DNA from: a virus
Taxonomy: Duplodnaviria > Caudoviricetes
Virus record (IMG/VR): IMGVR_UViG_3300021426_000093
Location: 2,572-66,571 of that record
DNA: 64,000 nucleotides
Strand: one strand, 5' to 3'
Positions 10,166 to 50,742 of the stretch are shown here, piece after piece. The position numbers and the translations under genes are program-made. Each line of letters begins with the position of its first letter. Within the stretch, counting starts at the first letter, position 1. The notes beneath the pieces are model-generated. The model had not been told where the DNA came from. It ran no database searches and was given only the letters and a program-made list of their open reading frames with translations.

Positions 10166-10474
10166 ATGCAGACGCTTTCAAGTAAATTAGGTTCACGAAA
10201 ATTTTGAATGGCAATAGCTGCGTTTTTAGCTTCTATTGGAACTTCTATTGGAGCTTTTGCCACAGATAATCCAACTGTAGCTATAGCAGGGGCTGCATGT
10301 GCGGCATTAAGTGCAGCAATCTATGCGGCAGCAGAAGCTTACGTAGATGGCAAACGTTATGAGAGTAATGCAACATCAACAGTAACGACAACAACGAAAA
10401 CAATTGGTGCTGCTAGTTCAAATGCTAAAGAAACAGTTGAAAAATTATTAGTTGATACTCCTTCTGATATTTAA
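10166..10474 (+). CDS. putative holin (102 aa; TGA=Trp at codon 14)
   Basis: SD AAGGAG precedes ATG 10166: MQTLSSKLGSRKF(TGA)MAIAAFLASIG...AIAGAACAALSAAIYAAAEAYVD. The SRKFW motif plus two hydrophobic helices is typical of phage holins. Confidence 0.75.
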
Positions 10475-10495
10475 AATTACCTTAAAATAGTTTGT

Positions 10496-10533
10496 AAAGC
10501 TCGCATATTTTATTAGATATGCGAGCTTTTTTT
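10496..10533 (+). terminator. intrinsic terminator
   Basis: AAAGCTCGCATAT...ATATGCGAGCTTT followed by a T run. Confidence 0.85.
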
Positions 10534-10613
10534 ATCAAAACAAGATAATTTTTATGCTGTCATTTTTACATAAAATAGAAATATTAAAATAAAAGAGGAA
10601 AAGGAGTATTATA

Positions 10614-13600
10614 ATGATAGATTTAACTCAATCATTGCTACAAGCTATTTCTATCATCGCAGATAGATCTGTCGAAGAAATATCCTCTGATAAAACAATT
10701 AAGGCTATAATTAAAAAAAATATAAATACTTCTGAAGGTAAATATCTTATTACTTACAATGATGGAGATTTTTACGCGTATACTCAATCAGGTTCTACTG
10801 ATATATATCAAGCTGGTGAAGAGGTGTATATATTAGTACCAGAAGATGATATGAGCCAGAAAAAATTTATCATTGGAAGGGTTGAAGATAATAAAGATTA
10901 TAGTCTTTCTGAAGTTTTAAACAGTTCTTTGTTAAATGATTATATTATGATTGGTGATAATGCTATCATTGAGAAAGAATATCCTGCCGCAGAGCTTGAT
11001 GAGGATGAAGACTTTCCTGAAAATAGGCTTGATGTTGTAAGGATGCAACCGTTAAAACTTGATTCACATTCTATTCAAAAGTTTCATTATTGCTATTTAC
11101 ATGATCCAAGTATTGTTAATTCAACTGATTATGATACTATTCAAAATAGAGTTGTTGATATTGATGAAGAAGTTTTTAGTAATTCTGCAAAACAAGCAAA
11201 GGCTTTATTAATAAGAAGTAAATTTAAAGCAAATCTTGATACAGATAATATTGGAAATTATGGAATTATTGTAAACATTGCATTCGCAGATGAAACAAAT
11301 CCGCAAGTAGATGATAGTGGAAATGTTACTTATTTACCTAAGTTAGTTGCGTATATTCTTGATACTAGCAAAATGACTGGTAATCCAATGCGTTTTTATG
11401 ATTATGTTTCACAATATACGATTGTACCTTTTGATGGTGAAAAATATCTATATATAGATTCTATTATTGCATTCAGTGAAGGCTTTGTTAATGAAGAGAC
11501 AGACCCTCATGATGAATACGATGATGTTTATATTTATATGGATAATCTTGAAATCATTGCTCTTGATGAGATTTCTGCCGTTAGTGGAGATTATAAATTA
11601 AGACTTATTACTCCAAAAGGAAATACTATCAAGGTTGGCCGCAAAGATGAACTAAAAATTAATGCAATAATGAGTTATTCTAATCAAGATATTACTCAAA
11701 ATACCGTTTTTTATTGAGGAGTAAAAGATTTTTCAGTAACTAGTCTTCATGATGATTATAACTCAAAATTAGGTACTGGGTATAGATGACTTAAAACAGA
11801 GAATAGTAGTGAAATAACATTAACTCCTTCTGATTTAACAGCTCCAGAAAATATTTATGCCTGTGTTGCTGTTTATGAATCAAATATTATTTTAAAAACC
11901 TTTGTTTCATTGTATAACAATAACAATAAAGTTGATATTGAAATTAGTAGTGACCAAGGAACAAGCTTTCAGTTTAATGAAGGAAGACCTACACTAACCT
12001 GTTTAATTAATAAAAAGACAGAAGGATACCAAGAGAATTATCCCGATGATGCTTTTTCTTTTATTTGAAGTAAAGAAGATCCTGATTATGGTATAATATT
12101 ATTAGATAAGAACGAAGAGCTGTTAATAGCAGAGAGAGAAGCTGAAATAGCTCAATGCGACATTAATGAGAATGGTTTAAGTGATGCCGGTCGTTCAAAA
12201 ACAGAAATATTGTCATATTATTCGACACAAATAAATCAAGCTCAAGGCATTCTTTATCCAAGTGGCATTTATGGCCCTAAAATTACTTGTAAATTAAAAA
12301 ATACTAATACATATGTTACTTATTCATGTTCTGTTTATCGAGCGGGTGTATATATAGGATATGGATCTATTACTCTGCAGAACCATAAAGATATTGTTAA
12401 TAATAATTATTATATTGATATTATAAATGGAAATCAAGTATTTCAATATGATGAAGCTGGTATTTCACCGAATAGTCAAAAACAACAGAATCCAATAGAC
12501 GTTCTTGATTTGACGGCAGTATTCCGTAGCCCGCAAGGTGCAGAAGTTACTCCTAGAAGAGTTAGATGGATAATGCCGCAAGGGCAGTCATTAATTAATA
12601 TTCCTTCTCTTGGATTAGAAACAGATATTGAAACAGGAGATAGATATTTTGAGGGAAGTATTTTCCCTTTAAGTATTAAAGATATTTATGATAGTAATTG
12701 TAATGATAATCAAGTAATTGCTGTTGTTACTCATGCCGATGGAACAGAATATCGTCAGAGTAGTAATTTATTGTTTACAAAAGTTGGTGAAATTGGTACA
12801 AATGGTACTGATATAGTCTTAAAAATTAATGAGAAAATTACACCTCCAATTGATGAATGTTTAACAATAATAAAATCTGATGGAAATTATTTCTATAATG
12901 AATACGATAATTCTACAAATACATACACTAATATTAATAGAGAAGTTTTAGAAGCTGATTTATATACAAATAATTTTAAAACTTTGGGTTATACTACTCA
13001 ATGGACAATTGCAGATAAATCTGGAGTAGGATGTAATTACGTTGTAGAAAGTAATTTAAATAATAATACTTGTAAAATTTCTTATAATAATCCATCTTTA
13101 TCTAATTTATTAGATACTCGTATTATTAAAGCTCAAACAAGTTTAAATGGTAAATATCTCTATAATTTTTATGGAATGCCTGCGATTGAATATAATTCTG
13201 GATATACTTATAATGAATATCCTATAAAGATTATACGACAAGATACTTTAAAAAATATTCTTTATGATTCTAATGGAACTAATCCTTCATATAATGAAAA
13301 TCAAGGCATCCATGTAGAATTTCCTAATTGAAATGTTACTGGGTACTTAGAATGAGCGGTTGAAAGTGGTATAAAAACAGACGGCGAATATGAAAATCCT
13401 AATTTGCTACTTTCTAGAAGTCCTAAATCTAAGACAGGATCTAAAGAATTAAATGCATCTTCTGATATTTCAGATATTGAAGCTTTTATTTTAGAAATTC
13501 AAGATATGAACCAAACATGCTTAGAAAATTCTAGTGGTAATATTAAAAATTATATTAATCAATTTTTAATAGATGTTGAAGAGATTGCTTTAGATAATTT

Positions 13601-16600
13601 ACTGCCAACTTTAATTAAGATAGATAATTTAGAAAAACGGATTAATGTTTTTAAAAATAAAACTCCTGATAAAAAGAATATTTATATTCAAACAATATAT
13701 GAAGGATATACAGATTTACTTGAACAGATTAAAACTGAATGTCAATCTTGTAAAAATTTAAATGAAAAATATACTAAAATTTATGATAAAATTCAAAAAA
13801 TATGGAATAGTGAATGGCCTAGTGTTATTACAAGTACAAGATTAAATATAAATAGTGTTAATCCGTATAATATAAAAAATATACAAGAATTAATCCAAGT
13901 ATATCAAAAAGCATATGATGATCGTTCTAATAATAGCAATAATGCGGTTCAAGTTCCTATTAGATCAGTTCTTTTTAAAGATAATTTTAATACATTAATT
14001 GGAAATGAATTAAATAAAAATGATGAAGATACGGCAACAGGCTTTGATAAATGCTATATAAGATATTGTAATTCTCATGGTATAGTTGATACATTTGATC
14101 CAGTTTTAGTTGAATATGCTAAAATTTTAATAACATATCTTTTTATATTAATAGATGAAACTCAAAAAAGTTTTGGCGAAGATGATGATGTTATTAAAAA
14201 TAAGTATAGTTTTATTTATGACGATTGAAATATTTTAAGTCCGGAAGGATTTGAAGCTATAGGTAAAAATATTTATGATATTATTCTTAATGCTGATAGT
14301 GCTGCAGCAGGGGTCTATGATAATATCCGAAGTTTATATCAATATTATCAATCTTTGTATATAAATATTAAAAAATATCAAATAGCAGAAGATTCTGAAA
14401 CTTTTAATGTTTGAATTTCAATTTTGAATGGAGAAGCACCTAACCTATTAAAACAAATTTATATTGTTCCAAATGATACTTTTAATGGTTTATATATGAA
14501 CAATAATGTTGTTGGTACAGTATTTATTGAAGAAGATAGTTCTAAAGTTCAAATTGCTAAAATATATATTCCAATTATAATGACACTTAATACCTATGAA
14601 TTACCAGCTTTAAATGGATGAGATGGTACTTCCGTGGATATTGGTGAAGATCATATTATGACTCCACAAATTGGTGCTGGTATAAAAGATTCTACAACGA
14701 ATACTTTTACTGGTATGGTTATGGGTGTAGTTGGTAATGAAAGTACAGATACGAATAATTTAAAAGGTAAAATTGATAAAACAAAAAAAGTTGGTTTAAT
14801 TGGATACTCAGATGGAAAACAATCTTTGTTTATTGATTCTAAAACTGGAAAAGCTTGTTTTGGATTACCTGAAAGTGATGATGGAACAAATGAAGGCCGG
14901 ATCGAATTAGTTCCTGGTGGTATTAGTAAAATAGGAAATTGAAAAATAGGGAGTCACTTTTTATATAATATCGTTGATGGCAGTTATGAACAACGAGTAG
15001 ATACTATATCTCGAAATAATGATAAAAAATTAATGATTCCGCATGATAAACATGGTATTATTCTTAGTTCTGAAAAACCTTATATTCATATAAAAGGTGA
15101 AGTTTATGAAAATAATAACTTAAAAGATATTGATTATGCTGATGAATATAATAATATTAATGTTGGAGATAGTCTTGAATTAAGATTAGATCCAGGTAAT
15201 GATTCATTATTCTCTATTGTTCAACATACTATTGGTTTTGGAGATGAAGATAATAGTAGTTTATTGTTTGGATATAAATCAAATGGTTCAGATAGTAATC
15301 CAAGTAATAATACTACAATAAAAGATTATATTGTTAATAAAAACTTTGGTTCACAAGGAACACCACAAATTGGTGAAGGCGTAGAATATCATATTTATAA
15401 ATTAGATACTGACAATGTCGGAAAATATAAAGCTTATTATCAAAAAGATAGTGGGTCGGCGATAACTAAAAATTCATTTTCTGAGAGTTTTACGATATTA
15501 AATACTATTAAATATTTATCCAGCAGTATTACAGAAACTAATTTTAAAAGAACAATTGATCCTAACCCTGTTTTTAAAATTGATACAATAAATGGGATTA
15601 TTACATATAATCCAGATAATCTAGCTTGAAATAGTGATAATGAACAATGACAAAGTGTTACTCGTTATACTCCTTTCGTTTCTGATAGTTTTAATATTGG
15701 TTTAAACTATAGTCAAGAAAATAATAAAGGTGATTTTAATATAAAAATAGGAAATATTACTAATTCTACTGGTTATAAGATTAGGAAAATATCTTTTGGT
15801 TATTCTTTAAAGTGTGAATTGGAGAATATTGAATTTATAGATTCTGAAAATACCTATATTCAATTTTATGTTTGTGTTAATGATTCAGACAATATTAATA
15901 GTAATAATGTTAAATTAATATCAAATAAAATTAATATTTGAGATAATTATAAAAATATTTCTTCTTCTTCTGTTGAATTATTTTCTAATAATGAAGGATA
16001 TTTAGCTAATGGAAGTTCCTATAAATTAAAAGCAAGAATATATACTGAAAATTATGCTATTAATGCAAATTGTTCATATCAAGTAAATCGAACAGCAACA
16101 ACTGTTAAAGAATTGTCAATAACACCAGAGTATGGAAGCGTTAATGTTGTTGCATCTACAATAGAAAAAACTTTTAAGAAAAACAATATTGGTAGTGATT
16201 GAGGAAGTTATAAAGTTGATACTAGCGGGAGGCTTTGAGTAAAACTTATAGAATCTAATTCATCTAATCCAACAGAATATGACATTATTGTTTGAAAAAA
16301 ATCTCTTAATTCTCCTGTTTATGGTGGTAGAATACGTGAAGATGGTGCTTGAGTAAATTTTAAAGGTGAAGATGGTAGTAATTATGATAAGGGTTATGTA
16401 ACTTTAGATCCAAAACCGTCTTCTTCAGTTAATGACTGGTATGTAAGTTTTTATGCTCCAGGGACTTTTATGATACAAAATACTGAATATACTTCAGATA
16501 TTACGACACAAATAACGTATGATTTTATTTCTCCTTTATTTAAAAATTCTGTAACTTATGGTATTAAATTTGGTGATTATAGCTCTATTAATTTTTCTTA

Positions 16601-18368
16601 TGGATTAAAAATAACTAATCTTAGTATTCAAAACATATATGGTTTTTCTCCAATCAGTATTAATGAAGACGTACTTTGTGTAGAAAGCACTGTAAATAAT
16701 TATAATTTACAAGGTATTAGATATGCTTTAACTTATTGGAAAAATGATCAACAAAGAATTAGGTTTTATAGTTCTTATTATATTTATGTAAACAATAATA
16801 CTGATGTTAAAGCACAATATGGGTTTATTGATATTAATAATAATAATGGAACATATTATAAATATATAAAAACATTAAAAAAACAAAATGTTAATACTTG
16901 ATTTAATACTCTTTCTAATGTAAATATTTCAGGATTTATCCATAGTGAAAATTATAAAAAAATAAATAATATAGATATTTATGATTGAGTAGATGTTCCT
17001 GTAAAAAGTTGTAATAATATCCTTAACTGAAAAGAATTCATTCGAGTTGGATTAGATGAAAACGGTCGTTTTTATACTGCTGGTTTACAAGATAAAAAAA
17101 CTTATAGCCGTACTGGAAGAATTTTTAGTTTTGGCAAAGTTGCTGATTTATATGGTCAAGAAATTAGAACTTTAACTTCTAATAATAATTATACTCCTAT
17201 TATAAAAATATTTTCAAAAATAAAAAATAATTTAGAAGAAACTACCTATATTACAAAAGGTAAAAATGATAATGGTAGTATTAGTATTAGAACTGCTGGA
17301 AATGGAAATAATCATTTTGTTGAATTAGGAGCAAGTCAAAATTTTGAGAATGAAACAGGTTCTATTCCTGAAGTACAGAATTTTGTTAGAGTTAGTTATA
17401 ATAAAGGCGTACAAATTCAAACAATTAATACAAGTACAAATCCTGAAGGAATAAATAGTATTAATTTAACAAATACTGGTTTATCTATAGAAACACCTAC
17501 AATAAAAATTTCATCTAATAATATTCAACATCAGTTTTCAAAAAATTATACTTGAACTAGAACTCCTTATTTGATTATTTCTTCAGATACATCATATTCT
17601 TCTCCTGATGGAGCCTATAGTGGAAATACTAAAAGTGGACAATTTAGAATTAGCGCTTCAAAAGTTGTTGATAGTAGTCATCCAGCTAGAATAGATTTAC
17701 AAATAGGTGAAGAAGCTAAAATTAGAATTCTTTCCAATCAAATTCAATTAAAAACAAATGATAGCCGTTATATTTTAATTAATAATAATAATTCTGATGG
17801 GACGGGTTTAGGTAAATTTGCAATAGAAGATATGATGTTACAATTTAATAATAAAACTCTTACTTTAAAAAATAAAAATAGTTTTATTTCAATTCAGCCA
17901 AATTCTTCTGGTAGTTCTGATTATTCTATTTCAATATCTTCTAATTTAGGTGGAAAAATAAATTTAACAAATAAAGTAACAGTTTTAGGTTCTGGCGGTT
18001 TTACTGTTTCTGCTGGACCAACCGTTTTACAAAAAGAGTTAGAGGTAAAAAGCAACGCTTATATGTTACAAGATTTACATATAGGATATAAACCTGGTAA
18101 TAATAAATCAAGTAAACAAAAAATTTATTTATATAAAAATGAAAATAAAAATTATGTACGTTTTTCTGCAGATGATTTAGAAAAGATTTTTAGTTGATTC
18201 AACAATAATCGTTGGGCAATTGGATATTGTGAAGAGGATAATACTTTATATTTGAAAAATGTAATAAATGAGTCTAGTCTTGAAGGAGCATATGATACTA
18301 AGAGTAAAAAATATAATTTTTCTTCTTCAATTCAAATATCTAAAGATTATACAGGTACTAGCTATTAG
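10614..18368 (+). CDS. large virion structural (tail/baseplate) protein, 2584 aa in code 4
   Basis: Eight track ORFs from 10614 to 17571 share one frame. I read the gaps and found only TGA; the first TAA/TAG is the TAG at 18366, followed by SD AGGAGG and the next ATG. Confidence 0.8.
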
Positions 18369-18379
18369 GAGGCTTTTAA

Positions 18380-20221
18380 ATGACAACAACTTTAAATACT
18401 TTATATCCACCTCAACTAGAAACTTTTATGCCTTCTTTTCGTTATGACAAACCTGCTAAGATATGGTTTAAAATATCCTCTTATGATGAAACAAAAATAT
18501 CATTAATTCAGTATATTCATGTTTCTATGGTTGATCAGCGTACTAATCAAAATGTATTTGCGGGTATGAATAATGATAATGTTGCATACCCGCAATATTA
18601 TCCTGTAAAATTTTATCCAGATAATACTGATGGAGCTAATGGTGATATAAGAACAGGTTATGATAATGATAAAGAAATGTATTGAGTAAGTATTCCTCCC
18701 AGAGTATTAAAAACGAATGTTCCGCTTAAATCTGGAAAAACGGCGGTATATAATACTAAACAATATTATAAAGTACAGTTACGTTTTGATTTAACTGGAA
18801 GTGCTGGTTATTCGGCGAATGATGGATATATAGATCCTACTTCATATTTTTCTTGAAGTGGTTCTAAAGCAAATGCTTTAAAATTGGCTGGATATACTAA
18901 TGCAAATGAAAATAATTTTTCTGAATGATCTACAGGAACTTTAATTAAACCGATTCTTATTCCTGAATTAACTATTCAAGGATTTTCAGATAGTGATGTA
19001 AATAATATAAAGCCTAATACTGATACATTAATTTCTGGGTCTTTAAAATTTGTTAGAGTCTCTGATGATACAACTCATACGGATAATGAAAAATTATCTT
19101 GATATCAAATTAAAATAATGAAAAATTCAATAGTATATTATGATACTGATAAAATGTATTCTGACAATGGTAAAAAATATTATTGTAGAATTGATACTTC
19201 AATGTTATCAGAATCAAACAATAATTATAAAATGCAGTTTACTTATGAAACAGATCATGGTTATACTCAAACAGTTTCATATACTGTTGCGATAGAAGGA
19301 TATGGTAATAATCAAACAAATGAAACTTATAAAATTACTACAGACGAAGAAAATGGTAGCGTTATTCTTGATATTGTAAAAACGAATCATCCAAAAGGCT
19401 CTACTTTAACGATTAGACGATCTTCACATCGTTCTAATTTTACAAAATGAGATTTAATATATGCTTGTAAATTTCCAGTAGCAGAAAAATCTATTGTAAT
19501 TGAAGATACTACTATAGAAAGTATGACTGGTTATCGTTATCAAATTCAATATGTTAATGGAAATACAATATATGCGCCGCAACGAACAGAGATTATACGG
19601 TGTGATTTTTATGGAGGATTTTTTTCAGATAGTGAAAGGATGTTAAGAGTAAGTTTTGATCTTGAATTGTCAAACAGAGCGAATGCAGTAAATCGTACAA
19701 AAACAGATACTCTTGGTGGACGATATCCAATTTTTACTCAAAATTCTAAATTAAAATATCATACTTATAGTATAAGCGGTCGTATTTCAACTGAAGATAA
19801 TGGAGAACTATTTTTATCAAAACAAGAATTATTTGGGCTTTCATCTGACTCTAATTCATACTATAATTATATGTATAATGTTAATGAAGTTACTAGTACT
19901 GATACATCAATTTTTGGTGGAAAATCTGGTTCATCAACATCAGTTTCAACTAAGAGAATCCAACCTAATAATGATTGATTATATGAGCGCGAATATCGAG
20001 ATGCTGCTGAAGAATGATTAAACAATGGTAAACCAAAATTGTTTAGATCAATGACAGAAGGCAATATGATTGTTATGTTAGATGGCGTTAGTATGACTCC
20101 AGATACTGCACTTGGCCGCAGGTTATATAGTTTTAGTGCGACCATGTATGAAATAGGCGATGGAAAAAATTTAGACTCTATTGCTTCTTTTGGATTATTT
20201 AATATTATTGATCAACGCTAA
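18380..20221 (+). CDS. virion structural protein, 613 aa in code 4
   Basis: Four in-frame fragments joined by TGA (e.g. NFSE[TGA]STGTLIKPI); ends in TAA. Confidence 0.8.
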
Positions 20222-20239
20222 TTTTACTAAGGAGAAATA

Positions 20240-23200: not shown

Positions 23201-23557
23201 TTAAATGTTAGTGGAAAAACAATACAAAAAAGAAGAGCAGAATATGCTGAATTAGCTGATGTTGCAGAAGATATTATTCAAGTAACAGACCTTTATTACA
23301 GTAATTTTGCTACAGGAGGATTTAAACAATCTGCTTATGAACAAATTAAATATGATTTACAACAGCATACTTCTTATCAAAATAATATTAGCATAACCGC
23401 AATTCCTTGTTTTTATCTTGAACCAAATACGAGAGTTACTTTAAATGACCATGCAACAAATACTTTCGGTGATTATGTTATTAAATCAATTTCTATTCCT
23501 CTTGGAATAGGAAATAATATGTCTGTAAATTTATCCAAAGCGATGGAACGAATTTAA
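20240..23557 (+). CDS. baseplate hub/tail protein (DUF5048-like by recollection), 1105 aa in code 4
   Basis: SD AAGGAG. Frame continuous through TGA: VREQ[W]VKITLLE[W], KII[W]FPQGVFFIT, KIKN[W]LGNYEYFYDEYGQFHFQEIKNYLN. The C-terminus LEPNTRVTL...DYVIKSISIPL is typical of phage hub proteins. Confidence 0.75.
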
Positions 23558-23566
23558 GGGGGTACT

Positions 23567-23848: not shown

Positions 23849-23961
23849 TTAATTATTGAGAAATATTTTAATAAAATAACAAAAAATAATAATTAAATAA
23901 TAATAGAAATTATATATATTGGAGAAAAATATAAAATAATAGCTTAAGGAGTTAATAGTAA

Positions 23962-24255
23962 ATGGATGTAGGTACAATTTCTATTATTATAGCTATTATT
24001 GGTTGTTTAGTTGGTGCAGCTGGATGATTACGAAATGCTCGTACAGATGCAAGTCAACAAAAAGGTGTTGAATCAGAAATTAAAACTAAACTTGATTTTA
24101 TGTCGAATGACATTAAAGAAGTTAAGGTTGATATAAGATCTTTTAGTCGTGATTTACAGGATGTGCGAACAATAGCTATTTCCGCGGAAGCTGAAGCTAA
24201 ACGAGCCAATACTAGAATAGATAATTTAATTGAAAAAAGAGATAAAGGGGAGTAA
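23962..24255 (+). CDS. small membrane protein, XhlA/holin-like (97 aa; TGA=Trp22)
   Basis: MDVGTISIIIAIIGCLVGAAG[TGA]LRNARTD...KLDFMSNDIKEVKVDI; SD AAGGAG. Confidence 0.65.
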
Positions 24256-24257
24256 AG

Positions 24258-24422: not shown

Positions 24423-24431
24423 ATTTTATTT

Positions 24432-33540: not shown

Positions 33541-33624
33541 AACTTAAATAACAAAAGGTAATAAAATAATATTTTTAAAAATTAAATAAAATAGAAATAA
33601 ATCACGGCTATAAAAGGAGAATAA

Positions 33625-38703
<5,079 letters not shown>

Positions 38704-38717
38704 GATAAGGAGATAAA

Positions 38718-41700
38718 ATGAGCACACAAACTGGTTCAATTAGTTTTGAAGCAACTGGCGGTTTTAACAGTTATGCTAAACAAAACTATGCGACTTTGTC
38801 ACAGATAAAAGGACAATTTGCTACGTGTGGGACTGGTGCAAGCACAGCCGCAAAAGTAGCTACAATTGTTCCTGCTGATTCTGGTTGGACTCTTTATGAC
38901 GGTGCAACTATAACAGTAAAATTTACAAGTAAAAATACAACAACAGCGCCCACACTAAATGTTAATAGTACGGGCGCTAAACCTATTAAAGATTTTAATG
39001 GTAATGATTTAATTAAAGCCGCGTATGAATGGCCTGAAGGTGCGGCTATGTCATTTACATATGATGGTTCCTCTTGGAGATTACAAGATAGTAATTTAAT
39101 GGAGCGTGTTCATACAGCGGAAACTGCTATTGAACAAAATGCAAATGAAATTAATTTAAGAGCTACTAAAGAAGAAGTAGATAATGCTATAGATGATGTT
39201 AAAATTACTAAGTTTGGAGAAGGAGCATCTGTTGTTGTAGAAGACTCAGCAGGACTTCCTCCAATAGAGGTGATTGGAGAAGGCTGGGCGGAGCAAGACG
39301 GCACGCCCACGCCTGACAACCCGCAGGAAGTGAGGGTGGCGAGGGGGAGGAACCTGCTGCCGAACACGGCTACCTCGAAGACCGTCAACGGCGTAACGTT
39401 CACTGTGAATGCGGACGGCAGCGTGACGGCGAACGGGACGGCAAATGCTGAGGCTGCTTTAGCTGTCTATATAAGCAATGAAACAGGTGGAAAATTTCAG
39501 GATGCGTTTTTAAGCGGCTGCCCAGCAGGGGGGAGCACATCGACATACATGCTTCGATTCTCGAATGTCACGCAGACTTCTGCGCCAGACATCGGAAATG
39601 GAGTGAAAATCAATATAGACACCACTGGTAGATGCGTCGTTGCCATAATTATCGCGTCAGGCTACACAGTCAACAATCTCACCTTCTACCCCCAGCTCGA
39701 ACTCGGCTCCACACCCACGCCTTACGTACCCTACGGGCATGTGGGTTTGGAGGTGCGTGATTCTAGCGATGAATTGGTTAGCGTCACGCTTATACCGCTA
39801 CCCTCCAAGGGCTTCGCGGCGGCTTTGCCAGACGGCACGGCGGATTCGCTGACGATTGACTCGGCGGGGCGGTGCGAGTGGTGGAACAGCGCGAAAATGG
39901 GAAGGGTTACAGGCAGCAACATCGCGGCTGTATATGACGCAAACTCCTGTTTGCATTGCACGACAAACATTATCACGGCAAAAACATCAGGCCAGGTTAA
40001 ATCCAATATGTTCCAGACCTATAGCGGCGATGCGAGCTCGTCAAATATGCAATTTGAGAGCGTCGGCGTCAATTCGGGTGGTAGCGCTCTTAGGTTTTCG
40101 GTTGATAAAAACAGGCTTGAAACAGTCGATTTGAACGGTATCAAAGCGTGGTTTAACGACAATCAGCCCGTTGTGCTTTACAAGATTGCCACCCCCACAA
40201 CCGAGCACGGCTACATCGACCTCCCGACAATCCCCGAGGGCGCGACAATCGCCATCCCAGAGCTTGAGAAGTCTAGTATTAAAGTAAGTTGGTGGACAAA
40301 ATCTGGTCAAGAAGCAGGTAATGCACATCAATCTTCAGTTAAAGAAAATGCTGAATTACGTATTACTGCTGATGGAATTACTTCTGAAGTTTCTAAAATT
40401 TCAAGTGCAAAATATGTTACTACTGGATATAATTATACTTTAGCACAAATTAAAACTTATGCGGCAGAAGGGCATTCCGATAATTGAACCATAGTGAGTG
40501 ATGATAGTATTAGAGTTGGAGATACTGTATATGTTAAAGTTCAAGATACTACTCGTACTTGCCCAGTATATATCAAAGTTAAAGTTACAACGATTTCATC
40601 TCCTACCCGTATAACTGGTATATCACATGGTTATGAAGATGTATTACCAGTTGATACTATTAAGTCTACTATTAATCAATCTTCTGACAGTGTTAAAATT
40701 CAAGCTAAACATATTGAGATTGATGGGACCGCAACCTTTAAGAATAATGATAATACTACAACTACTCTTAGTAATTATTTAACTAATAATTATGATGCTA
40801 AAGGTGCAGCTCAAGAAGCTATAAATAATTTAGAAATTGGTACAAGAAATTTTCTATTAGGAACCGCAGAAGAAAAAACAAATGCCGATCTTGTTACTTT
40901 TGATTTATCACCAGCTTTTTATGAATTATCTACTGATGATATATTAACTATTTCTTTTGATGTGAATGTTGCTTCTACAGGATGAATTGATTGTTATTGA
41001 AGAAGTGCGGCTAGTGGGGGAACTACTTATGCAAATGAAGCTAGTTTTTATCCCGCATGAGAAATAACTAGTGCAGGAGAATGATTACATTTTTCAGCGT
41101 CAGATATAATAGGTCCAAATTTAACAGATGCAAAAGTTTTAGCTTTTAGATATAATACAACTAAACATAGTAGTGCAACAAGTAAATCTAAAACCTTTAA
41201 AAACGTAATGCTTGAAAAATCAACAATACCTTCTTCTTGACAAGAAGCACCAGAGGATATTCAAGCAAATATAGATATAGCTCAAAACACAGCTAATAAC
41301 GCTGCTCCTAAGACTTCAGCAGTTTCCCGCACCCAACGCATATATTATCAATCTGCTAGTACAACTAAACCTTCTACTCCTGGTACAGTTTCTAGTGATT
41401 GAGTTTCAGATGAAAGTGGTGCACCTGATAAATGAACTCTTAAACGCATGAGTTATTCTTCTACTAAACCCTATATTTATACTTGCGAACAGAAGCAAGT
41501 TGTAAGTGGTACAGTCTCTTATACTCCTGTTCTCTTGGATGATACTACTACTGTTATAGATGGCGGTAAAATTATTACTGGTAGTGTTACAGCTAATGCT
41601 TTAAATGCTTCAAATATTAATGCTAGTAACATGTTAACTATTGGTGCTTTTAATTCTAATACTCAAAATTCAATTTTAAATTCTGAAGTAATGGATGAGT

Positions 41701-43334
41701 TAGTTTCTCGTGGTGAACAACTCGTTATTAATGGTAATGCTTTTATGGGTGATAATACTAATTTTTCAATGTGAGTTTATGACGGAGTGAAAGCGAATGT
41801 GTCAGGAGGATCGTTTACTCATTCTATTCAATATAGTACAACACTTTGAACTGATGAGTTTATTCCAATTGATGGTAATAGCATTTATGAATTTTCATTT
41901 GACGCTATATCAGAGAGTGGTGATGCAAGGCTATATGGTGTATTTTATTGTTATGATATAGATAACAATGCTATAACAGCGTCAGATATTCTTTATATTA
42001 ATGGTTCAACTACAACATTGGCGCAAGATCTTAAATCTGGCGATACTTATGTCTATCTTACAGATGTGTCTGGATTCGACCCAAACGGCGTAGATGTTAA
42101 TGGAGCATATTCTAGATCACTTATTTTTTGGGATTATACAAATTCAAAGGGATATAGATACCCAATCGAAACATATTCACGGCATCGTCTTTCATATGAC
42201 AAATGAGCTGCGCATTCAAATATCGACTATACAAATAATCGAATACAACTCAAAACAGCATACTCTGGTACGACTATACCTGCTGGTACTCCAGTTTCTC
42301 AAGGAAATAGCGGTTCTACGTATGAATATCCCGCAGCAGTTAATGCGCTTATCCCATCTGATTGGCAGCATTATACTGGTTACGTGCATCCAAAAGGTGT
42401 GACTGTTCCAACTGGGGCGAATGCTACTCTTCGGCCAGGAACCGCAAAGGCGAAAGTAGGTTTTTTGTGGAATTATGGTGGTTCATCTTCTAAACCACAA
42501 TCACAAATATGGGTAACAAATGTATCTTTAATGAAATGGCGTATTACAAGTTCAGAAACAATTGAGCAAACTCAACAAATTTATTATAGAAGTAGTAGTT
42601 CTTCTGTACCAAGTGGTACTGGACTTCCAACAACATGAGTTACAGCTACAACTGATTTATTTGCAACAACAAATATTGATGCATCTAAATGAAGTCTTAA
42701 AGCTTCACGATTAACTGCAAATGCAGATGGTACTGGGATTAAATATCCTTATTTATGGACTTGTACTCAAAAGAAAACCTTAGATGGTACAGTTTCATAT
42801 GGAACTATAACTCTTGATGATACTACAACGGTAATTGATGGTGGAAATATTATCACAGGAAGTGTTTCTGCAAATAGTATTAATGCTAATAGTGGTAAAT
42901 TTGATACTGCGAATATTCCTGATTTAAGTGCAGCAAAGATAACTTCTGGGGATATCACAGCAGATAGAATTAAAACTAATGTTGTAAATGCTATTAATGC
43001 AACTGTAAATCAAATAGATGCAAAAAATATTAAAGCGTCTGAACTCCAAATTGGACAATCACAAGTTACTAATTTAACAAATGATATTGCCGATGCTAAA
43101 AAACACACTCAAGTTATTGTTTCAGCGAGTAATGTTAATTATGCTGCAAATACGTGTACATTGACTGCTCGATTATATATTGATGGTGAATTACAAACTG
43201 GCACATCATTAAAATGGCAATGATATAGGGATGGTGCCGCACAAGGAAGTCAAATGACAGGCGCTACAGGAATGTTGAATGTTACATCTACTCTTGGAAT
43301 AGGGCATCGCTATTCCTGTAAATGTACATTCTAG
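38718..43334 (+). CDS. tail fibre / receptor-binding protein, 1538 aa in code 4
   Basis: SD AAGGAG. Frame continuous via TGA to TAG. Carbohydrate-binding-like segments and duplicated TTTVIDGG.IITGSV.AN modules. Confidence 0.8.
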
Positions 43335-43346
43335 AAAGGAGATAAT

Positions 43347-43994
43347 ATGGCAGAAGAGATTGGTGAGCTTGATCTTACCGCTCAAGCTGATGCAGCTAAA
43401 ACCGCAAGTAATTTTATTACAGAAGTTACAAATAGTGGAATTATGGTTGCTGATCAAGGTAAAGGCACAACGGATGGCGTTATTACACCAAATACAACGG
43501 GTTGGCATCTTTCTGATACACTTGAACTTATTAAGGATGGTATTACAACATTTAAAGTATGATTAAATGAAGATACTACAAAAATGCGTATTGGTAATGA
43601 AGATAGCAATCATATTACGCTTGATGATACAGGTATGAAAATATTTGATTATAATGATAATACAGCAACATTTAATAAAGATGGTATAGAAATTGGTACA
43701 CAATATCATGTACAAATTTTATCAGATGGTATGCATATAATTGATCCTGCTGATGTTGTAGTTGCATCTTATGGTAAAAATTCAATAATTGGACCGTCAT
43801 CTGATTTTCATTTGTCTACTACTGGTAATCGTATGGAATTTTGGCAAGGCAATACGCTCGTTAGCTATATTAACAATAACCAAATGAAGATACCTAGTAT
43901 TGTAGTTGATGAACGTATGGAGGTTGGTAATTGAACATGGATCCATCGTGCTAATGGGCATTTGTCATTAGTTTGGATTGGAGGCGATGAATAA
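43347..43994 (+). CDS. minor tail protein, 215 aa in code 4
   Basis: SD AAAGGAG. The C-terminus VGN[W]TWIHRANGHLSLVWIG resembles common phage tail-tip termini. TAATG coupling to the next gene. Confidence 0.7.
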
Positions 43995-46900
43995 TGGCTG
44001 TTGATGATATTTTCGTTCTTGGAGATTATACGTACAATATCCGCCTAGAAGCTACCTCGACGAATGCAGGTGAGGTCAGTGTAAAGGCAACAGATAAAAC
44101 CAAGACATCATATGGAGCAATCCCAGCAACGGTAACCTATGGTGGGCAGAATTACAATGTGGAGAGTGCGAGTGAATGTTTCTTGGATTGCAAGAATTTA
44201 GTTAGTGCACCTAATATGGATTTTTCTAAATTTAGCTTTGTAAGTAGAATGTTTAAAGGTTGTACGTCGCTTATCAATCCACCAAATATGAACGTCACCA
44301 CTGATTATTTATATGCACTTGAAATGTTTAGCGGTTGTACGTCGTTAGTTAACCCACCCGTTTTGCCACTTCCCGTGTCCGGGTCTTTTAATAATATGTA
44401 TAACTACAAGAAAATGTTCTATGGTTGCACGTCGCTAAAAACTGGGCCTGATATGCATAGATACGATGCTGAATGTAATGTGATTGTTGAACAGATGTTC
44501 TTTGGTTGCAGTGCGCTTAAAAGTGCAACGCTTCCCGCACTTATCAACCAAAGCGTTAATTACCAGAGAACTCAAAACTTGCACGGTGTATTTCTAGGTT
44601 GTAGTTCGTTATTGACCGCGCCAGCACTTCCATCTGATGCGGTTGGGAGCATGGAATCTTGTTTTGCTAATTGTGAACAAATGACTAATGCGCCGATAAT
44701 TCCAAGTGGAATAACCGATGTTACATATTGTTTTAAAAATTGTAAAAATATAGAGACGGCACCCGCGTTACCGAACGGCATCACATCGCTGGATAGTACT
44801 TTTATGAACTGTGAAAACATAACTGTTGCACCAGTAATTCCAAGCGGTGTTACTAATTTACACTGTAGTTTTTGAGGTACTAGTATAACGGAAATGCCAG
44901 TTCTTCCCTCTGGGGTAACAACCTTGGTTGGCGCATTCGGTAGGTGCCAGTATTTAACGAGAACAAAAACAATTCCTGCGAGCGTGTCGGATATGGAGGA
45001 GTGTTTTTATAGAACATCAATCTCATCAGTTCCGGCCATTCCTCAATCTGTTACGAATTTGAATTCTTGTTTTAGTTATTGCGAACACCTGACAAATGGG
45101 CCTGATTTAAGCGCGTTGACACAGCTCACTTCGCTTTTTAATGCGTTTTTAGGTTGCACATCGATGATTACTCCGCCAGTGTTGCCTGAATCCATGCAAG
45201 ATGATGATGATTTATTCGGAGGTATGATTCAGACGTTCTCTGGTTGCTCGGCGCTAAAGACAGCTCCCAGAATACCAAATGGAGTCAAAAGTCTAAGTAG
45301 TTGTTTTTCTGGATGCACGAATATGGAATCAGCGCCGCAAGAGATACCGTCAAGTGTCATTAATATGAACAGTTGTTTTCGCCAATGCTCGTCAATGGAG
45401 AATACTCCGAACATGAGAAATGCGTCATCTGTTGTCAGTATGAGAGGAACTTTTTATGGATGCAGTAAAATAAAATCTGCTCCGATAATTAACGCAAGCG
45501 TGACGGATATGAACTATTGCTTCTACAATTGCTCGTCATTGACTGGGATCATCGTTGTTAATTGCACGCCGACAGAGCGCGAGAGTGTGTTTAGTAGTAC
45601 GAGGGAGCCTATTTTCATTATCCTTGACGGGACAGCTGATGCCGAAACTTGGCGTGCGATAGCCGACGAGTACGAGAACGTATACTTCTTTGCCGACTCT
45701 AACTCCAAGCCCGCTTTATCATTTTCTGTTACCCGTGTTTCGGCAAATGGACAAACGACCGAAAATACCGAGGGTGTTTGGGTTTATATCATCGCGATTG
45801 CAACGGTTTATTCTGACCATCTGCCACCAGGATATAGTAATGAAGTCGGTGCAATTACGTTAACTGATAATAGTGCATCCACTTCACCTACGTGAGTTAG
45901 CGATTCAATCGTTGAAGGTGAACATAAAGTTACCGAGACGCGGCATACATGATTGCAGATTTCGACTATCAGACATGTTTTCGCAATGTCAGTGGTTGAT
46001 AGCTATGATGTTAGTTCACCAACTATCACGGTTAAGTTACCCAGCACAAATACGCTGTTAGACTTCTCGCCAGGCGGTAACGGCATGGCAGTTGGAAAGA
46101 TTGCAACTAGAGATGCGTTTGATTGTGCAATACCCGCATATTTTAATAATGTTAACATTGATGGCGATATTCAAATATCAGGTGATGTAAGAAATACGAG
46201 TGGTAATGCAAAGTACCTCCCATTATCGGGCGGTAGTATGACTGGGACACTCGTCCAGAACGGTGGTAACATAAACATCAAGGCAGCGACGCTCGACCGT
46301 GATGGTACTGACCCGCAATCAGACGAGACGATCTGGGAAGATAATCACGCGCTTAATCTCATGGACAAGGACGGCGATGTAGTCGGTAGGCTACGCATCG
46401 GACGCAGTACTGGCGGGGTAGATTACACACAGCTGCTTGTGTGGAACGAGGATAGCAGCGGCAATCCCGTATATAACACATTTGCCATCGCGGTCGCCAA
46501 GGGCGGTACGAAGTATTACAGCGTATCAGATGCACCTAAGTTCCGCAGCGACCTAGGCATAGTCTCAAAGTCCGGTGATACCTTAACAGGGACATTATCT
46601 AGTCAACCTGGAACTGGTGTCTCATATATTGCAGGTACTGCAGGTACACACGCTGGTCTATTCGTCAGAAAATCGGCGCTTAACCAGGATGTATGGATAC
46701 CCGCCGTTACCGTGCAGACTAAAGGCGGCGGCGGCTGGGCAATCGGCAACTACAATGACGAGACGCTAAAGTTTGTATACGGCTCTAAGGCGAACATCGA
46801 TGCGAACAAGAACCAGACGGAACAGCTCTACTTCACTAACGAAGGGGGTATCGTCACGCCTTATTACCTCATCGCCACTAACTCTGATTATAGCGCATCA

Positions 46901-48043
46901 ACCACCCCTGGCTCTAATATCTGGGCGACTATAGCAGCGGGACGCGATTCCGCGGGTCTTGACCGTGCGTATATTAGGCAGACGGCCATAAATGATGGGT
47001 ACCAGGGCGTGCAAGTGGAGACAAAGCGTGGCAGCGTGTATAATGGCGTGCGCATGGAAATAAATAGCAGCGGCGATAGGCGTGTGATTGTATCGGATAA
47101 GACAGCGTGGCTCAGCGGAATCGGCGCGCTTCCCCTGACGGGTGGCACGATAACAGGCACGACAAACTTCGGCACCGACAACTACGATCGCGACGCGGCG
47201 GCTAATACGTCCGGCCAGTCTGGTATAAACGTTCAATGGACGGATAAGAACAACGAGCGCACTGGCGTCATTCGCGTCGACCGCGACACGGGCGGCATCA
47301 TGCGCATGAAGATAGGCGCATTCACTGAGAATGCCTCCAATCAAGAAGTTTACAACTGATTGCAGTTCGGAGTAGACCGTGCCGGAACGAGGTACTATTC
47401 TGTTTCGGACAAGGACAAGTTCCGTTCTGATATGGAAATTATGGGTGCGGTGACTAAGAACGGCTACGGCGGCCTGATGCATCCGGGTGGCAGTGACACG
47501 GCTTACATGCGTACGACCCAGAACGGCCTCATCCCGTATCAGTCAGGCGGTGCATCAGCTGTAGGTACGAGTACCTGGCCATTCAACAGTGGCTACTTTA
47601 ACACCCTATATGAAAATGGTACGGCGCTAAGTACAAAGTACGCGGCGAAGAGCCACGGCAACCATGTTCCCGCAACTCAAACTGCGTCGAATAAAGTGTT
47701 CCTCAGAAACGACAACACTTGGCAGACGATCACGCCAGCGAACATTGGTGCCGCGCCTTCAGGTCATACCCATTCTGCAGGAAGAACAACTTTTTCAGCT
47801 ACCTCTGATGCGACTTCAATAAATGAAGCTTTAACAACACCTGTATCAATAACAGTAAATTATACTGGTAAAGTTCCTAGTGGGAAAGTAATGACTGGAC
47901 TCTATGGAGCTCAGACAAATAGTGGTGCAAATTTTTGAATTATGAGTTTTGACCATAATTCGGCTCGTGTATTAAATGCTGGTGCAACATCAACGAAATG
48001 TACTGTTACTTTAAAATTTGTAGCAATAGAAAGTACATTTTAA
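43994..48043 (+). CDS. BspA/DUF285-type leucine-rich-repeat tail fibre, 1349 aa in code 4
   Basis: About 22-aa repeats of the type P.LP.GVT.L...F.GC..L at 44.2-45.6 kb, then fibre segments (KYLPLSGGSMTG, ALPLTGGTITG). Five in-frame TGA; ends in TAA. Confidence 0.82.
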
Positions 48044-48064
48044 GTAAAGAAAGGATAAAATAAA

Positions 48065-48439
48065 ATGGAACAAATGGAATACATTTTAATAGATGAAAAT
48101 AATCGAGTTGCAAGTATAGTACACGTACCAGTAGGAGATAATCATTATATGGACTTTAATTCAGATGAATATGAACTTATAGTAACAGACTCATCTGGAA
48201 TAGATATTAATACTAATTGAGTTGACTGAATATATAATAAAGAATCTAATACTTTTGAATATGATCCAATAATAGAAAAGTATGAATATACAGATTTGTC
48301 AACTGGGAAAAAAGTATCTATAACAGAAGATGAATTTAATAATTTAGTAGATGAAAAAGTTCGTAATAATGTTATGGCAATTTTACAAGAATTAGCGGAT
48401 AAAGATGCTGCATCAATTCAAAAAATTTTAAATATTTAA
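48065..48439 (+). CDS. probable tail fibre assembly/accessory protein (124 aa, 2 TGA)
   Basis: SD AAAGGA; follows the fibre gene; N[W]VD[W]IYN. Confidence 0.6.
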
Positions 48440-48519
48440 TTTTATTTTAAATAAATAAAATAAAAAGAAAGTATTTAAATTTTTTATAATTGTATAAATT
48501 TTAAAAGGAAGGATTAAAA

Positions 48520-48900
48520 ATGGCAGTAAGTATAATTGATCAATTTATTGATGGTTTATCTGAGGATTGGATGCGTTCGGTTTTTGTTGATCGACTAGAA
48601 AATGCTAGACTTCTAGTTGATGACGAAACTTTTGGAGACAAAGAGGGAGCAAACAATGCCGTAGCAAGTTTCTTACAATTATCCACAGAACAACGTCTTG
48701 CAGAAATTGAACGTTTACGTGTCCGTAATATTGCAACACAGTGAGCAAAAACAGCTACTAAAGATGCAATTAATTCTTTAGTAACCGTTCTTCGTACTAT
48801 CCGTGATGCTGTTCCAGAAGAAGGAACCACAGGCGAAACTGGAGAAACTGGTGAAGAAGGTAATACTGACGAAACTGGTGAAAGCGGCGAAAATCTTTAA
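48520..48900 (+). CDS. hypothetical protein (126 aa, 1 TGA)
   Basis: SD AAGGAAGGA. Reads through the TGA at 48742 to a TAA just before a terminator. Confidence 0.7.
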
Positions 48901-48906
48901 TTTTTA

Positions 48907-48935
48907 AAGAGCACCTATACAGGTGCTCTTTTTTT
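48907..48935 (+). terminator. intrinsic terminator
   Basis: AAGAGCACCT...AGGTGCTCTT followed by a T run. Confidence 0.85.
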
Positions 48936-49041
48936 ATGCATTCGTGAAAAATTTTTTAGACAAAAAATATCAAAGGATAATAAATAATACCAGTTAAAAA
49001 TTAAATATAATAGAGGGTAAGAAAAAGAAAAAAAATAAGGA

Positions 49042-49350
49042 GTGGCTGATATGAAAATTATGCGAAAGCTCTATGATCAATGTATGGAAGAGCTAGATGG
49101 TGTAATAGAATATTCTAATTGTGCTACTTCATGCCGAGATAATCCAGATTTATCTAAAATGTATATCAATATGGCTAAGCAAGAATTAGAACATGCACAA
49201 ACATTACATAATATGTCTAAAAGATTAGCCGAAAGTAAGATAGGTGAAAGTGTTGATCCTATGCTTATGGAACTCTGAGAAGAGATGGAACAGGCTAAAA
49301 TAAATAAAATGGCTTTAGCAAGAGCCTATGTTACTAATGCAGAAGGATAA
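49042..49350 (+). CDS. ferritin-like small protein (1 TGA)
   Basis: Helical, with E..D and ELEH metal-ligand-like motifs; readthrough MEL[W]EEME...AEG-TAA. Confidence 0.6.
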
Positions 49351-49360
49351 GGTGGTTCCA

Positions 49361-49777
49361 ATGCCTGCTGGACAGTATAATAATTGAATGCCAAATAATT
49401 GGTCTGGAACATGACAGTGGAATCAACCTTATCAGCCGCAAATGTCTTATAATAATAATAACAATAATAATATGCAGCAACCTGTTAGTAATATTCTACG
49501 TGTGACAGGCCCAGAAAGTGCTAAAGCTTATCCAGTATCTCCAAATTCTAATGTAATATTATTTGATGGAGAAAGTCCTGTTTTCTATTGAAAATCTACT
49601 GATGATAGTGGATTTGCTAGTATAAGAACTTTTACTTTTGAAGAACAAAAACAAGAAAAAGTTCAACCAACGGTTGAACAAATTGATACTTCAAAATTTA
49701 TTACTAAAAATGATCTAGAAGCATTAGAAAAAGATGTTTCTGAACTTAAAGAAATGTTAGAAGGATTGGTGAATTAA
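49361..49777 (+). CDS. Asn/Gln-rich hypothetical protein (138 aa, 3 TGA)
   Basis: Not in the track. MPAGQYNN[W]MPNNWSGT[W]QWNQP...GPESAKAYPVSPNSNVILFDGESPVFY[W]KSTD. Confidence 0.75.
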
Positions 49778-49778
49778 T

Positions 49779-50003
49779 ATGACTAATCCATTATTTGATA
49801 AACAACCTCAACCTGGGAATCAAGGAATTTTTGGTCTTATGAAACAATTAAAAGGCGGTGGAGCACAACAGATGTTTGATCAAATGTATCAAACAAATCC
49901 GCAATTCAGAGATTTTGCTAATTCTATGAAAGGCAAAACCCCAGAACAAGCCTTCCAGGAGAGAGGGTTTGATTTTAATTCCTTTAGAAGTATGATAAAT
50001 TAG
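49779..50003 (+). CDS. hypothetical protein (74 aa)
   Basis: Coupled to the previous gene; QMYQTNPQFRDFANSMKGKTPEQ. Confidence 0.75.
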   Translation: MTNPLFDKQPQPGNQGIFGLMKQLKGGGAQQMFDQMYQTNPQFRDFANSMKGKTPEQAFQERGFDFNSFRSMIN

Positions 50004-50067
50004 GTAACTACTAACGACAGTTAGTGGAAGATATATACAAATTATCAAACGAAAGGATGATAACATT

Positions 50068-50742
50068 ATGGCTGATATGACTTTAAGTGATATTGCTGCT
50101 CTAAATCATGATAATGACGGTTGGGGAGGCGGTTGCTGGTGAGTAATTGTTCTCTTCGCTCTAATTTTTGGTTGGGGCAATAATGGATTTGGCAACAATG
50201 GTTTTGCTAATGCCATTGGTTATGAAAATCTTGCAACCTCTAATGAAGTACAGCGTGGTTTTGATAACCAAAATAGTATGGCAAATCAGCGTGAAATCCT
50301 CGCTGCGGTTAATGCTGGTACCGCACAATCTGTTGCAACTACAAATCAAACATTCCATGATATGCTAAATGCTCTTAGTGATAAATATATGGAATTACAG
50401 CGTGATATTGCTGGTATTGCAGTTGGCCAAGCTAATGCTCTTGCTAATCAGAATCAGTGTTGCTGCGAAACTAAGATGCTAATTCAAGAAAATGCAGCGC
50501 AGCAACGTTATGAATCTGCTATGCAAAACAATGCAGTTATTCAAGCAATTCAGGCTGAAGGTGCTGCTACTCGTGAAATGTATCAGCAAGACAAGATTGA
50601 AGCACTACAGAATCGTGTTAATCAGTTACAGCTAGATCAAGCTATGCAAGGTGTTGTACGTTATCCTAACGTATTTGCATATAATGCTGGCGCCAATCCA
50701 TTCTGCGGTTGTGGCAATGGTGGTTGCTGCGGCAACATTTAA
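50068..50742 (+). CDS. Gly/Cys-rich hypothetical protein (224 aa, 1 TGA)
   Basis: SD GAAAGGA. GWGGGCW[W]VIVLFALIFGWG...EVQRGFD...CCCETK...CGCGNGGCC. Confidence 0.8.

Follow-up and report, generated by a model that had tools for sequence, protein, structure and literature searches.

The question raised by this stretch of phage DNA (64,000 nucleotides, positions 2572–66571 of the 66,571-bp IMG/VR record IMGVR_UViG_3300021426_000093; hereafter the ‘window’) is what the triplet TGA means in a ~40-kb block of tail genes (10166–50742), and what reads it. Gene calling with the standard bacterial code (table 11) shreds these 40 kb of phage, the longest open reading frame (ORF) within 10–50 kb being one of 589 amino acids (aa); calling with TGA as tryptophan recovers seven giant tail proteins. 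We consider it highly probable that the window derives from a phage in which TGA stands for Trp within the tail module, is read by a tRNA with the anticodon UCA—tRNA(UCA)—encoded by the phage itself, and ties the production of tail proteins to the late phase of infection, in a host that uses the standard code. The phenomenon has been described before, the window adding one more case; the ‘timer’ reading is the model of Borges et al. (bioRxiv 10.1101/2021.08.26.457843; later Nat Microbiol 2022), who put forward the hypothesis that recoding delays tail and lysis proteins, and who also reported a bias towards lysis genes.

The meaning of TGA in the tail block

Recalling ORFs with only TAA and TAG as stops, and comparing the outcome with table 11, we obtain a back-to-back series of 2584, 613, 1105, 2952, 1692, 1538 and 1356 aa, together with smaller ORFs; given the base composition, a 2584-codon frame would lack TAA and TAG with a probability of ~1e-85. 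In total, the block holds 17 ORFs (13,146 codons) with 128 in-frame TGA and 58 TGG; TGA has replaced ~70% of TGG in the tail module. All 17 end in TAA or TAG—the collagen-like fibre gene finishing with TGA TAA, after which come a Shine–Dalgarno sequence and an ATG. The 27 ORFs outside the block (6,189 codons) carry 6 TGA and 100 TGG, a difference between block and flanks with a Fisher p of 1.4e-28. An initial annotation of this DNA had claimed that dozens of in-frame TGA split the structural genes, and that these genes end in TAA or TAG; both statements hold. It had also proposed recalling the genes in the manner of code 4 and aligning them to homologues, and it is this procedure that recovers the giant ORFs and, as described below, places their TGA at Trp positions. 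Nor are the giant ORFs artefacts of reading through genuine stops, since their homologues in a complete standard-code relative (G004) are uninterrupted table-11 ORFs of 2785 aa (tape measure), 1760 aa (2584-aa virion protein), 940 aa and 978 aa.

The identity of the encoded residue is given by comparison with homologues. Across four genes aligned with G004—none of which contains TGA in that phage—18 of the 38 window TGA align with TGG, a codon that makes up 1.1% of those aligned. The remaining partners are mostly Tyr, Phe, Leu, Ile and Met (Tyr/Phe at seven positions, Ser at only two), and 31 of the 36 codon-aligned TGA face an aromatic or hydrophobic residue. Against the recoded relative G001, we count 54 TGA–TGA pairs, 15 TGA–TGG and 11 TGG–TGA; that is, 26 swaps running both ways, from which we conclude that the two triplets behave like synonymous codons. 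In the 1105-aa ORF, the 16 TGA fall in columns filled by W, Y, F or L in homologues, with three of them (residues 110, 210 and 841) being W in 118 of 119 proteins, and TGG in 15–18 of 25 IMG/VR loci, those loci having no TGA in the gene. The tape measure protein returns one profile match over residues 48–1178, spanning nine TGA; further along it carries the Trp-spaced repeats described in the initial annotation, with TGA at residues 2449, 2460, 2485 and 2496, and again at 2831, 2841, 2851 and 2863. With any other meaning for TGA, Trp would make up only ~0.2–0.3% of the late proteins. As judged from these alignments, the assignment of TGA to Trp in the tail block is very well supported, in agreement with the earlier claim that the triplet sits where homologues have Trp.

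Two other meanings were considered and rejected: code 25, in which phages of Absconditabacteria and Gracilibacteria read TGA as Gly (not one Gly codon is present among the 38 aligned positions), and selenoprotein genes (TGA aligns with Trp, Tyr and Phe; selenocysteine insertion sequence (SECIS) elements were not searched for). Proteomic validation of phage recoding has been published for TAG-to-Gln only, TGA-to-Trp in phages not yet having been confirmed in this way.

The picture of the block changes in two respects on closer inspection. An ORF that at first seems to hold eight TGA (10022–10474) is conserved only from 10166 onwards, a part that holds one; the other seven lie upstream of the conserved start, and the protein itself has no Pfam or PHROG family above threshold. 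The description ‘virion/lysis module’ stands in so far as this is a tail module; no recognisable endolysin was found in the 64-kb window, and the lysis cassette of its relatives is located elsewhere.

A candidate UGA-reading tRNA in sister phages

The contig from which the window is taken has a CheckV completeness of 50% and no terminal repeat. It is collinear, in reverse orientation, with the 140,682-bp genome of G001 (window −2500 to 62666 corresponding to G001 136.5 to 72.5 kb), at identities of 93% for GyrA, 90% for GyrB and 50–60% for the tail proteins; another sister, G010 (46,865 bp), shares the initial 2.6 kb of the contig, with 85–93% nucleotide identity. Amongst deposited phages, the best matches to the window's gyrase-like proteins are only ~30% identical; this, combined with the collinearity to G001 and G010, argues that the contig is phage DNA rather than a bacterial chromosome with a prophage. 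The relatives are ~140-kb phages of gut and rumen metagenomes, cultured ones having Enterococcus and Enterocloster as hosts and using the standard code. The best explanation for the window is that it represents about half of a ~140-kb tailed phage, with a Gram-positive gut or rumen bacterium as host.

In G001 we find a 97-nt gene of 65% G+C, called tRNA-SeC(tca) by ARAGORN, that scores 42 bits against the Rfam tRNA-Sec (selenocysteine tRNA) model, below its 47-bit gathering threshold, and falls outside the matches of the general tRNA model. It is located ~535 bp upstream of a GH25 endolysin gene (13 TGA, 3 TGG), with a gene for a 167-aa membrane protein in between. Working downstream, the order is a perfect sigma-70-type promoter, a TGA-free ORF of 166 aa, the tRNA, a hairpin with a run of T, a Shine–Dalgarno sequence, the membrane protein and then the endolysin. 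Viral and metagenome contigs were searched with the endolysin, the recoded loci counted being those with upstream DNA: tRNA(UCA) lies upstream of the recoded endolysin (8–15 TGA) in six of six (G001, G010, L106, L107, L108 and L110), both of the closest relatives included, and at that spot in none of the 17 loci with a standard-code endolysin. The tRNA, hairpin, Shine–Dalgarno sequence and downstream genes are kept in all six; the promoter and the 166-aa ORF are checkable only in the three loci with enough upstream DNA.

The six copies, together with one found elsewhere in the genome of G003, fall into four sequence types. Compensatory changes are seen at 17 of the 22 base pairs predicted, and no copy departs from the anticodon loop CUUCAAA, from G73 or from the encoded CCA end. 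Those of G001 and G010 (L085/L086, 5369–5465) differ only at four anticodon-stem pairs, both sides being changed and pairing kept. Almost the whole stem is thereby swapped (GCGGU/ACCGC versus AUAGA/UCUAU), an exchange for which the stem may have been under selection, for instance to evade a nuclease acting on the anticodon arm. Given synteny with relatives that share 85–93% nucleotide identity, we would place the window phage's own tRNA(UCA) cassette ~20 kb beyond the left end of the contig. The earlier proposal of a phage-borne UCA tRNA as the switching factor is thus borne out in the relatives (6/6 versus 0/17) but not on the fragment, which is without one; its companion, antagonism of release factor 2 (RF2), finds no support, as no gene for a release factor or tryptophanyl-tRNA synthetase (TrpRS) was found in the fragment or in G001–G004.

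The absence of a UCA tRNA from the fragment would also fit a reading in which no dedicated tRNA exists, the tRNA-Trp(CCA) of host or phage instead reading UGA by wobble while RF2 is inhibited. The array of tRNA genes in the relatives does include tRNA-Trp(CCA), and UGA is naturally leaky in Bacillus, a point that we count in favour of such wobble. With 27 TGA in a single gene, however, readthrough would have to be near-complete at each; moreover, the standard-code G004 has the same tRNA-Trp(CCA), no gene resembling a release factor was found, and at the endolysin loci the UCA tRNA tracks recoding perfectly. We regard this reading as very improbable. Two further candidates were tried: a tRNA-Trp(CCA) of the Hirsh type, for which the U11–A24 pair is present but identical in G004 and so does not explain recoding, and editing of the tRNA-Trp anticodon from C to U by the dCMP deaminase (52419–52853), a 54%-identical homologue of which is encoded by G004. 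Both were rejected.

In build, tRNA(UCA) combines an 8-bp acceptor stem and a 4- or 5-bp T stem with a long extra arm and G73. The last two features favour charging with serine by seryl-tRNA synthetase (SerRS), and the copies score 42–45 bits against Rfam tRNA-Sec. In E. coli, the allo-tRNAs, which are similarly built, insert Ser, Ala or Cys (PMC5389517). Taken at face value, this shape would have TGA read as Ser, Sec, Cys or Gly. The codons speak against it: among the 38 aligned positions of the window, TGG accounts for 18, Tyr/Phe for seven and Ser for two; the sister phages show no outstanding exchange of TGA for Ser, Gly or Cys; Trp in the late proteins would fall to the low level given above; and 128 UGA codons count against Sec (with the same proviso regarding SECIS elements). 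We find such a reading scarcely credible.

The extra arm itself folds as a hairpin with covarying stems. Its loop is GUCCAAA in L108 and G003, CGUCCAAAA in L110 and CCUCCACAA in G001 and G010; among the types it reads GUCCAAA or CUCCACA, with UCCA in four of four. In the tRNA-Trp(CCA) that the phages themselves encode, the anticodon loop is CUCCAAA. The extra-arm loop, in other words, appears to copy the anticodon loop of tRNA-Trp, and may serve TrpRS as a ‘surrogate anticodon’. Three of the four types also have A1–U72, a pair typical of bacterial tRNA-Trp. Tentatively, and with rather less than even confidence, we suggest that the UGA decoder of this lineage is a selenocysteine-tRNA scaffold repurposed for Trp, with the extra-arm hairpin as a possible handle for the host's TrpRS, and with its gene in a small unit of standard code that immediately precedes the holin-like and endolysin genes. 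We found no published description of a decoder built in this way in the literature. The closest in form are the allo-tRNAs/selC* tRNAs of Mukai et al. (PMC5389517), which share the 8-bp acceptor stem, the 4- or 5-bp T stem and the long extra arm. They differ in the amino acids that they insert, the codon positions of the phages calling for Trp, and in that the extra-arm loop of the phage tRNA resembles the Trp anticodon loop. The sister phages' decoder points to a concrete, testable way in which a tRNA with a UCA anticodon could retain Trp identity.

Host code, timing and the spread of recoding

As a stop codon, TGA terminates 20 of 96 ORFs in G004, none of the 17 genes in the block and one of the other 27 in the window; the rarity of TGA stops relative to G004 suggests that the lineage has purged them, with a lone survivor in the class of TGA-free genes. 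This survivor is the Rnl1-like RNA ligase (57757–59040), the stop of which lies only a few residues away from that of its G001 orthologue. Beyond its TGA come a Glu codon, a second TGA, eight codons and then TAA (to 59073); the ligase would gain an 11-residue tail after a code switch.

Scanning the sense strand for TTGACA-N16-18-TATAAT with at least 11 of 12 positions matched, we find 17 promoters in ~26 kb of TGA-free DNA versus three in the 40.5-kb block, all three inside ORFs; the perfect matches, five of five, lie outside the block. The 5171–9902 region has near-consensus sigma-70-type promoters at 4757, 4997, 5115 and 6790, and eight more are found on the + strand at 51260–60324, the last two being just beyond 60182. 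Gene functions divide in the same place: topoisomerase II, dCMP deaminase, two RNA ligases, phosphoesterases and tRNAs outside; tape measure, fibres and tail proteins inside. Promoters and functions thus agree in hinting that the split between block and flanks is one between late and early genes. Of the 27 outside genes, 24 are TGA-free and bear out the claim of a standard code in early genes; the other three, which carry TGA, do not. That gyrA and gyrB write Trp as TGG is confirmed throughout, yet the two together have only six Trp codons.

From the avoidance of TGA in early genes, the one early TGA stop, the association of relatives with Enterococcus and Enterocloster, and the GH25 endolysin of relatives, we infer that the host uses the standard code. 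Were the host itself to use code 4, the phage would simply match it and no switch of code would take place. The low G+C (26–34% across most of the window) is in keeping with this, as is the presence in a putative receptor-binding protein of DUF285, a domain named after Mycoplasma; two scans of bacterial genomes, moreover, gave no host. Mycoplasma and Spiroplasma (code 4) and their phages do share TGA = Trp with the window, but there TGA is used genome-wide with the host supplying tRNA-Trp(UCA), whilst here its use is limited to a single module. Nothing would lead a phage of a code-4 host to shun TGA outside the tail block, and against that host stand the outside genes, with TGA in only three of 27 and 100 TGG; the early RNA ligase that stops at TGA, close to the stop of its G001 orthologue; the sister lineages, which are standard-code or TAG-recoded; the cultured relatives on Enterococcus and Enterocloster; and the UCA tRNA that recoded relatives encode for themselves. 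In phages matched to recoded hosts, ~90% of genes have in-frame TGA (bioRxiv 10.1101/2021.08.26.457843). We therefore judge a code-4 host very improbable.

With a standard-code host, the proposed sequence of events would be as follows. TGA would act as a sense codon for Trp in the tail module, TGA stops having been purged, while genes for DNA, nucleotide and RNA metabolism, behind promoters of host type, would keep TGG. UGA would be read, to go by the sister phages, by the phage's 97-nt tRNA(UCA) on its selenocysteine-tRNA-like scaffold, the gene for which should immediately precede those of the holin-like protein and the GH25 endolysin, in the part of the genome, about half, that is absent from the contig; the copy of the tRNA-Trp anticodon loop in its extra arm may let TrpRS charge it. 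In such a host, full-length tail and lysis proteins could be made only once the tRNA is present, and their production would thereby be tied to the late phase. On this analysis, we infer that recoding may act as a timer of late expression.

The same distribution of codons could arise with no timer at all. Following gain of tRNA(UCA), A+T pressure may have turned TGG into TGA wherever this was tolerated—i.e. in genes translated while the tRNA is abundant—with no regulatory role being selected; A+T-driven drift after tRNA gain would give the same TGA pattern. In line with this, the TGA share of Trp codons follows composition, at 75–89% in genes of 27–39% G+C, and 47% and 33% in the two ORFs containing the stretches richest in G+C, these ORFs being 39% and 46% G+C overall. 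The two-way TGA/TGG swaps between sisters resemble those of neutral synonymous codons; G003 has the tRNA but is lightly recoded, with an endolysin that is not recoded; and in G001 a host-type promoter precedes the tRNA. On the other side, the endolysin is among the most recoded genes (12–15 TGA versus 3–5 TGG), which fits the lysis-gene bias of Borges et al. The two readings are in any case compatible with one another. That recoding is a by-product alone we think unlikely, if far from negligible.

Several observations weigh against the scheme that we favour, of a phage-encoded tRNA(UCA) reading TGA as Trp in a standard-code host. No UGA-reading tRNA was found on the 66.5-kb fragment, either among its eight tRNA genes or by a permissive Rfam scan and a stem-loop scan, and the decoder for the window phage rests on synteny with phages that are 85–93% identical. 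The long extra arm and G73 of tRNA(UCA) point to serine, Trp charging being deduced from codon positions only. TGA also occurs in three conserved genes outside the block, at 4345–4860 on the − strand (two), 53069–53596 (three) and 53550–54014 (one). Searches for a release factor (PF00472) and a class Ib synthetase/TrpRS (PF00579) gave nothing meaningful in the contig or G001–G004, two of these relatives being 95–96% complete. The perfect host-type promoter in front of the G001 tRNA means that the tRNA may be made early, and this weakens the case for a strict timer. Finally, the host was identified by neither bacterial genome scan, the one with the G+C-rich leucine-rich repeat (LRR) module finding no relative or source, and the other, for an exact 22-mer of tRNA(UCA), finding no match in bacterial genomes and only two viral contigs.

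Viewed as a whole, the family is a graded series on one architecture: standard, lightly recoded with the tRNA, heavily recoded, plus a TAG branch. In the 1105-aa gene, loci L001–L004 have 13–16 TGA, a level of recoding like that of the window, and 18 loci (L006–L018, L021–L025) have none. G003 (139.8 kb; L077–L083) is lightly recoded, with 3 TGA to 11 TGG in the 1105-aa gene and 140 to 397 genome-wide; it has tRNA(UCA) at 51418–51514 and an endolysin without TGA, and resembles an early stage of code change. G009, a 138-kb relative, carries two tRNA(CUA) genes in tandem (L102, 1402–1570) and is, on that account, probably TAG-recoded. One of the pair is 91 nt, long enough for an extra arm, and may correspond, for TAG, to the decoder of TGA. 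To go by codon usage and tRNA content, the family spans standard-code, TGA-recoded and TAG-recoded members, and the series should help in following the spread of a code change across a genome.

Among known systems, the Agate phages of Borges et al., from animal and human guts, are similar to the window's family in having ~127–154-kb genomes; standard, TGA-recoded and TAG-recoded members in one clade; suppressor tRNAs; and hosts predicted to use the standard code. That clade is defined by a terminase tree and the terminase is not on our fragment, such that the agreement is one of size, habitat and code mix only; the Agate paper (bioRxiv 10.1101/2021.08.26.457843) gives no shape for the suppressor tRNA. 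The relatives resemble the Jade ‘code-change module’ (Borges et al.) in that a UGA-reading tRNA, encoded in a unit of standard code, immediately precedes a recoded lysis cassette; they differ in that the tRNA comes without RF1 or TrpRS, and is the sole recognisable component. phAss-1 has a similar genome size and recoded virion genes, and its counterpart of the 1105-aa protein is 35% identical (that of ~140-kb Enterococcus phages, 30%); it recodes TAG with CUA tRNAs, the window TGA.

Other features of the window

Features of the window, with coordinates numbered from its first nucleotide
Feature	Coordinates	Strand	Remarks
GyrA-like and GyrB-like topoisomerase II subunits	1–4060	−	No in-frame TGA; stops TAA and TAG
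TGA-free genes including metallophosphoesterase	5171–9902	+	Every Trp codon TGG
Small membrane protein, 102 aa, holin-like (putative)	10166–10474	+	One TGA, codon 14; only this part conserved in G001
Terminator-like hairpin	10496–10529		
Giant virion protein, 2584 aa	10614–18368	+	21 TGA, 7 TGG
Virion protein, 613 aa	18380–20221	+	phrog_30026 at 1e-15; 7 TGA, 1 TGG
Virion protein, 1105 aa	20240–23557	+	phrog_32343 at 2e-33; 16 TGA, 2 TGG; 2962 homologues
Two tandem paralogous small proteins, 93 and 97 aa	23567–23848, 23962–24255	+	Membrane anchor and coiled coil each
Tape measure protein, 2952 aa	24645–33503	+	phrog_4211 at 2e-61; 27 TGA, 5 TGG
Collagen-like tail fibre, 1692 aa	33625–38703	+	24 TGA, 5 TGG
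Tail protein, 1538 aa	38718–43334	+	14 TGA, 16 TGG
215-aa protein and 1356-aa protein with BspA-type LRR and DUF285 domains	43347–48043	+	1356-aa protein: 6 TGA, 12 TGG
Six small ORFs	48065–50742	+	8 TGA in total; recoded block ends here
Hairpin	50756–50780		
Mostly TGA-free genes: dCMP deaminase, two RNA ligases, phosphoesterases	50788–60182	+	
ROOL RNA, full length	60441–61017	+	Rfam RF03087, 346 bits, model positions 1–574; directly upstream of tRNA array
8 tRNA genes (Thr, Asp, Gly, Pro, Met, Glu, Leu, Gln)	61876–63964	+	Array truncated by contig end
tRNA-like element between tRNA-Asp and tRNA-Gly	62034–62123	+	Acceptor, D and T arms; 17-nt anticodon loop

The 2584-aa virion protein has no Pfam or PHROG match, its residues 1–1965 being 50% identical to a 2622-aa ORF of G001. 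The 11,608 homologues of the tape measure are mostly of 2700–3000 aa. Each of the two small paralogues has its single TGA directly after the membrane segment, and the second matches an Lpp-type leucine zipper at 2e-10. Residues 1–589 of the 1538-aa tail protein are without TGA, and G+C is higher there; the 43347–48043 genes, at 46% G+C and locally up to 50%, show the lowest recoding within the block. These stretches of 44–50% G+C within the tail genes (38718–40487, 44000–48000), with few or no TGA, resemble recently imported receptor-binding modules.

No Rfam family matches the 850 nt between the ROOL RNA and tRNA-Thr. The tRNA array, cut short here, goes on in G001 with Met, Asn, Lys, Trp(CCA), Arg and Ser. 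The tRNA-like element within it was rejected as a decoder, as it contains no UCA and is detected by neither ARAGORN nor Rfam; likewise, an ORF at 62758–63717 (two TGA) was rejected as a homing endonuclease, having no Pfam match. The two RNA ligases, one Rnl2/DNA-ligase-like (55486–56412) and the other T4 Rnl1-like (57757–59040), lie near phosphoesterases and the tRNA array, an arrangement that resembles a tRNA repair set.

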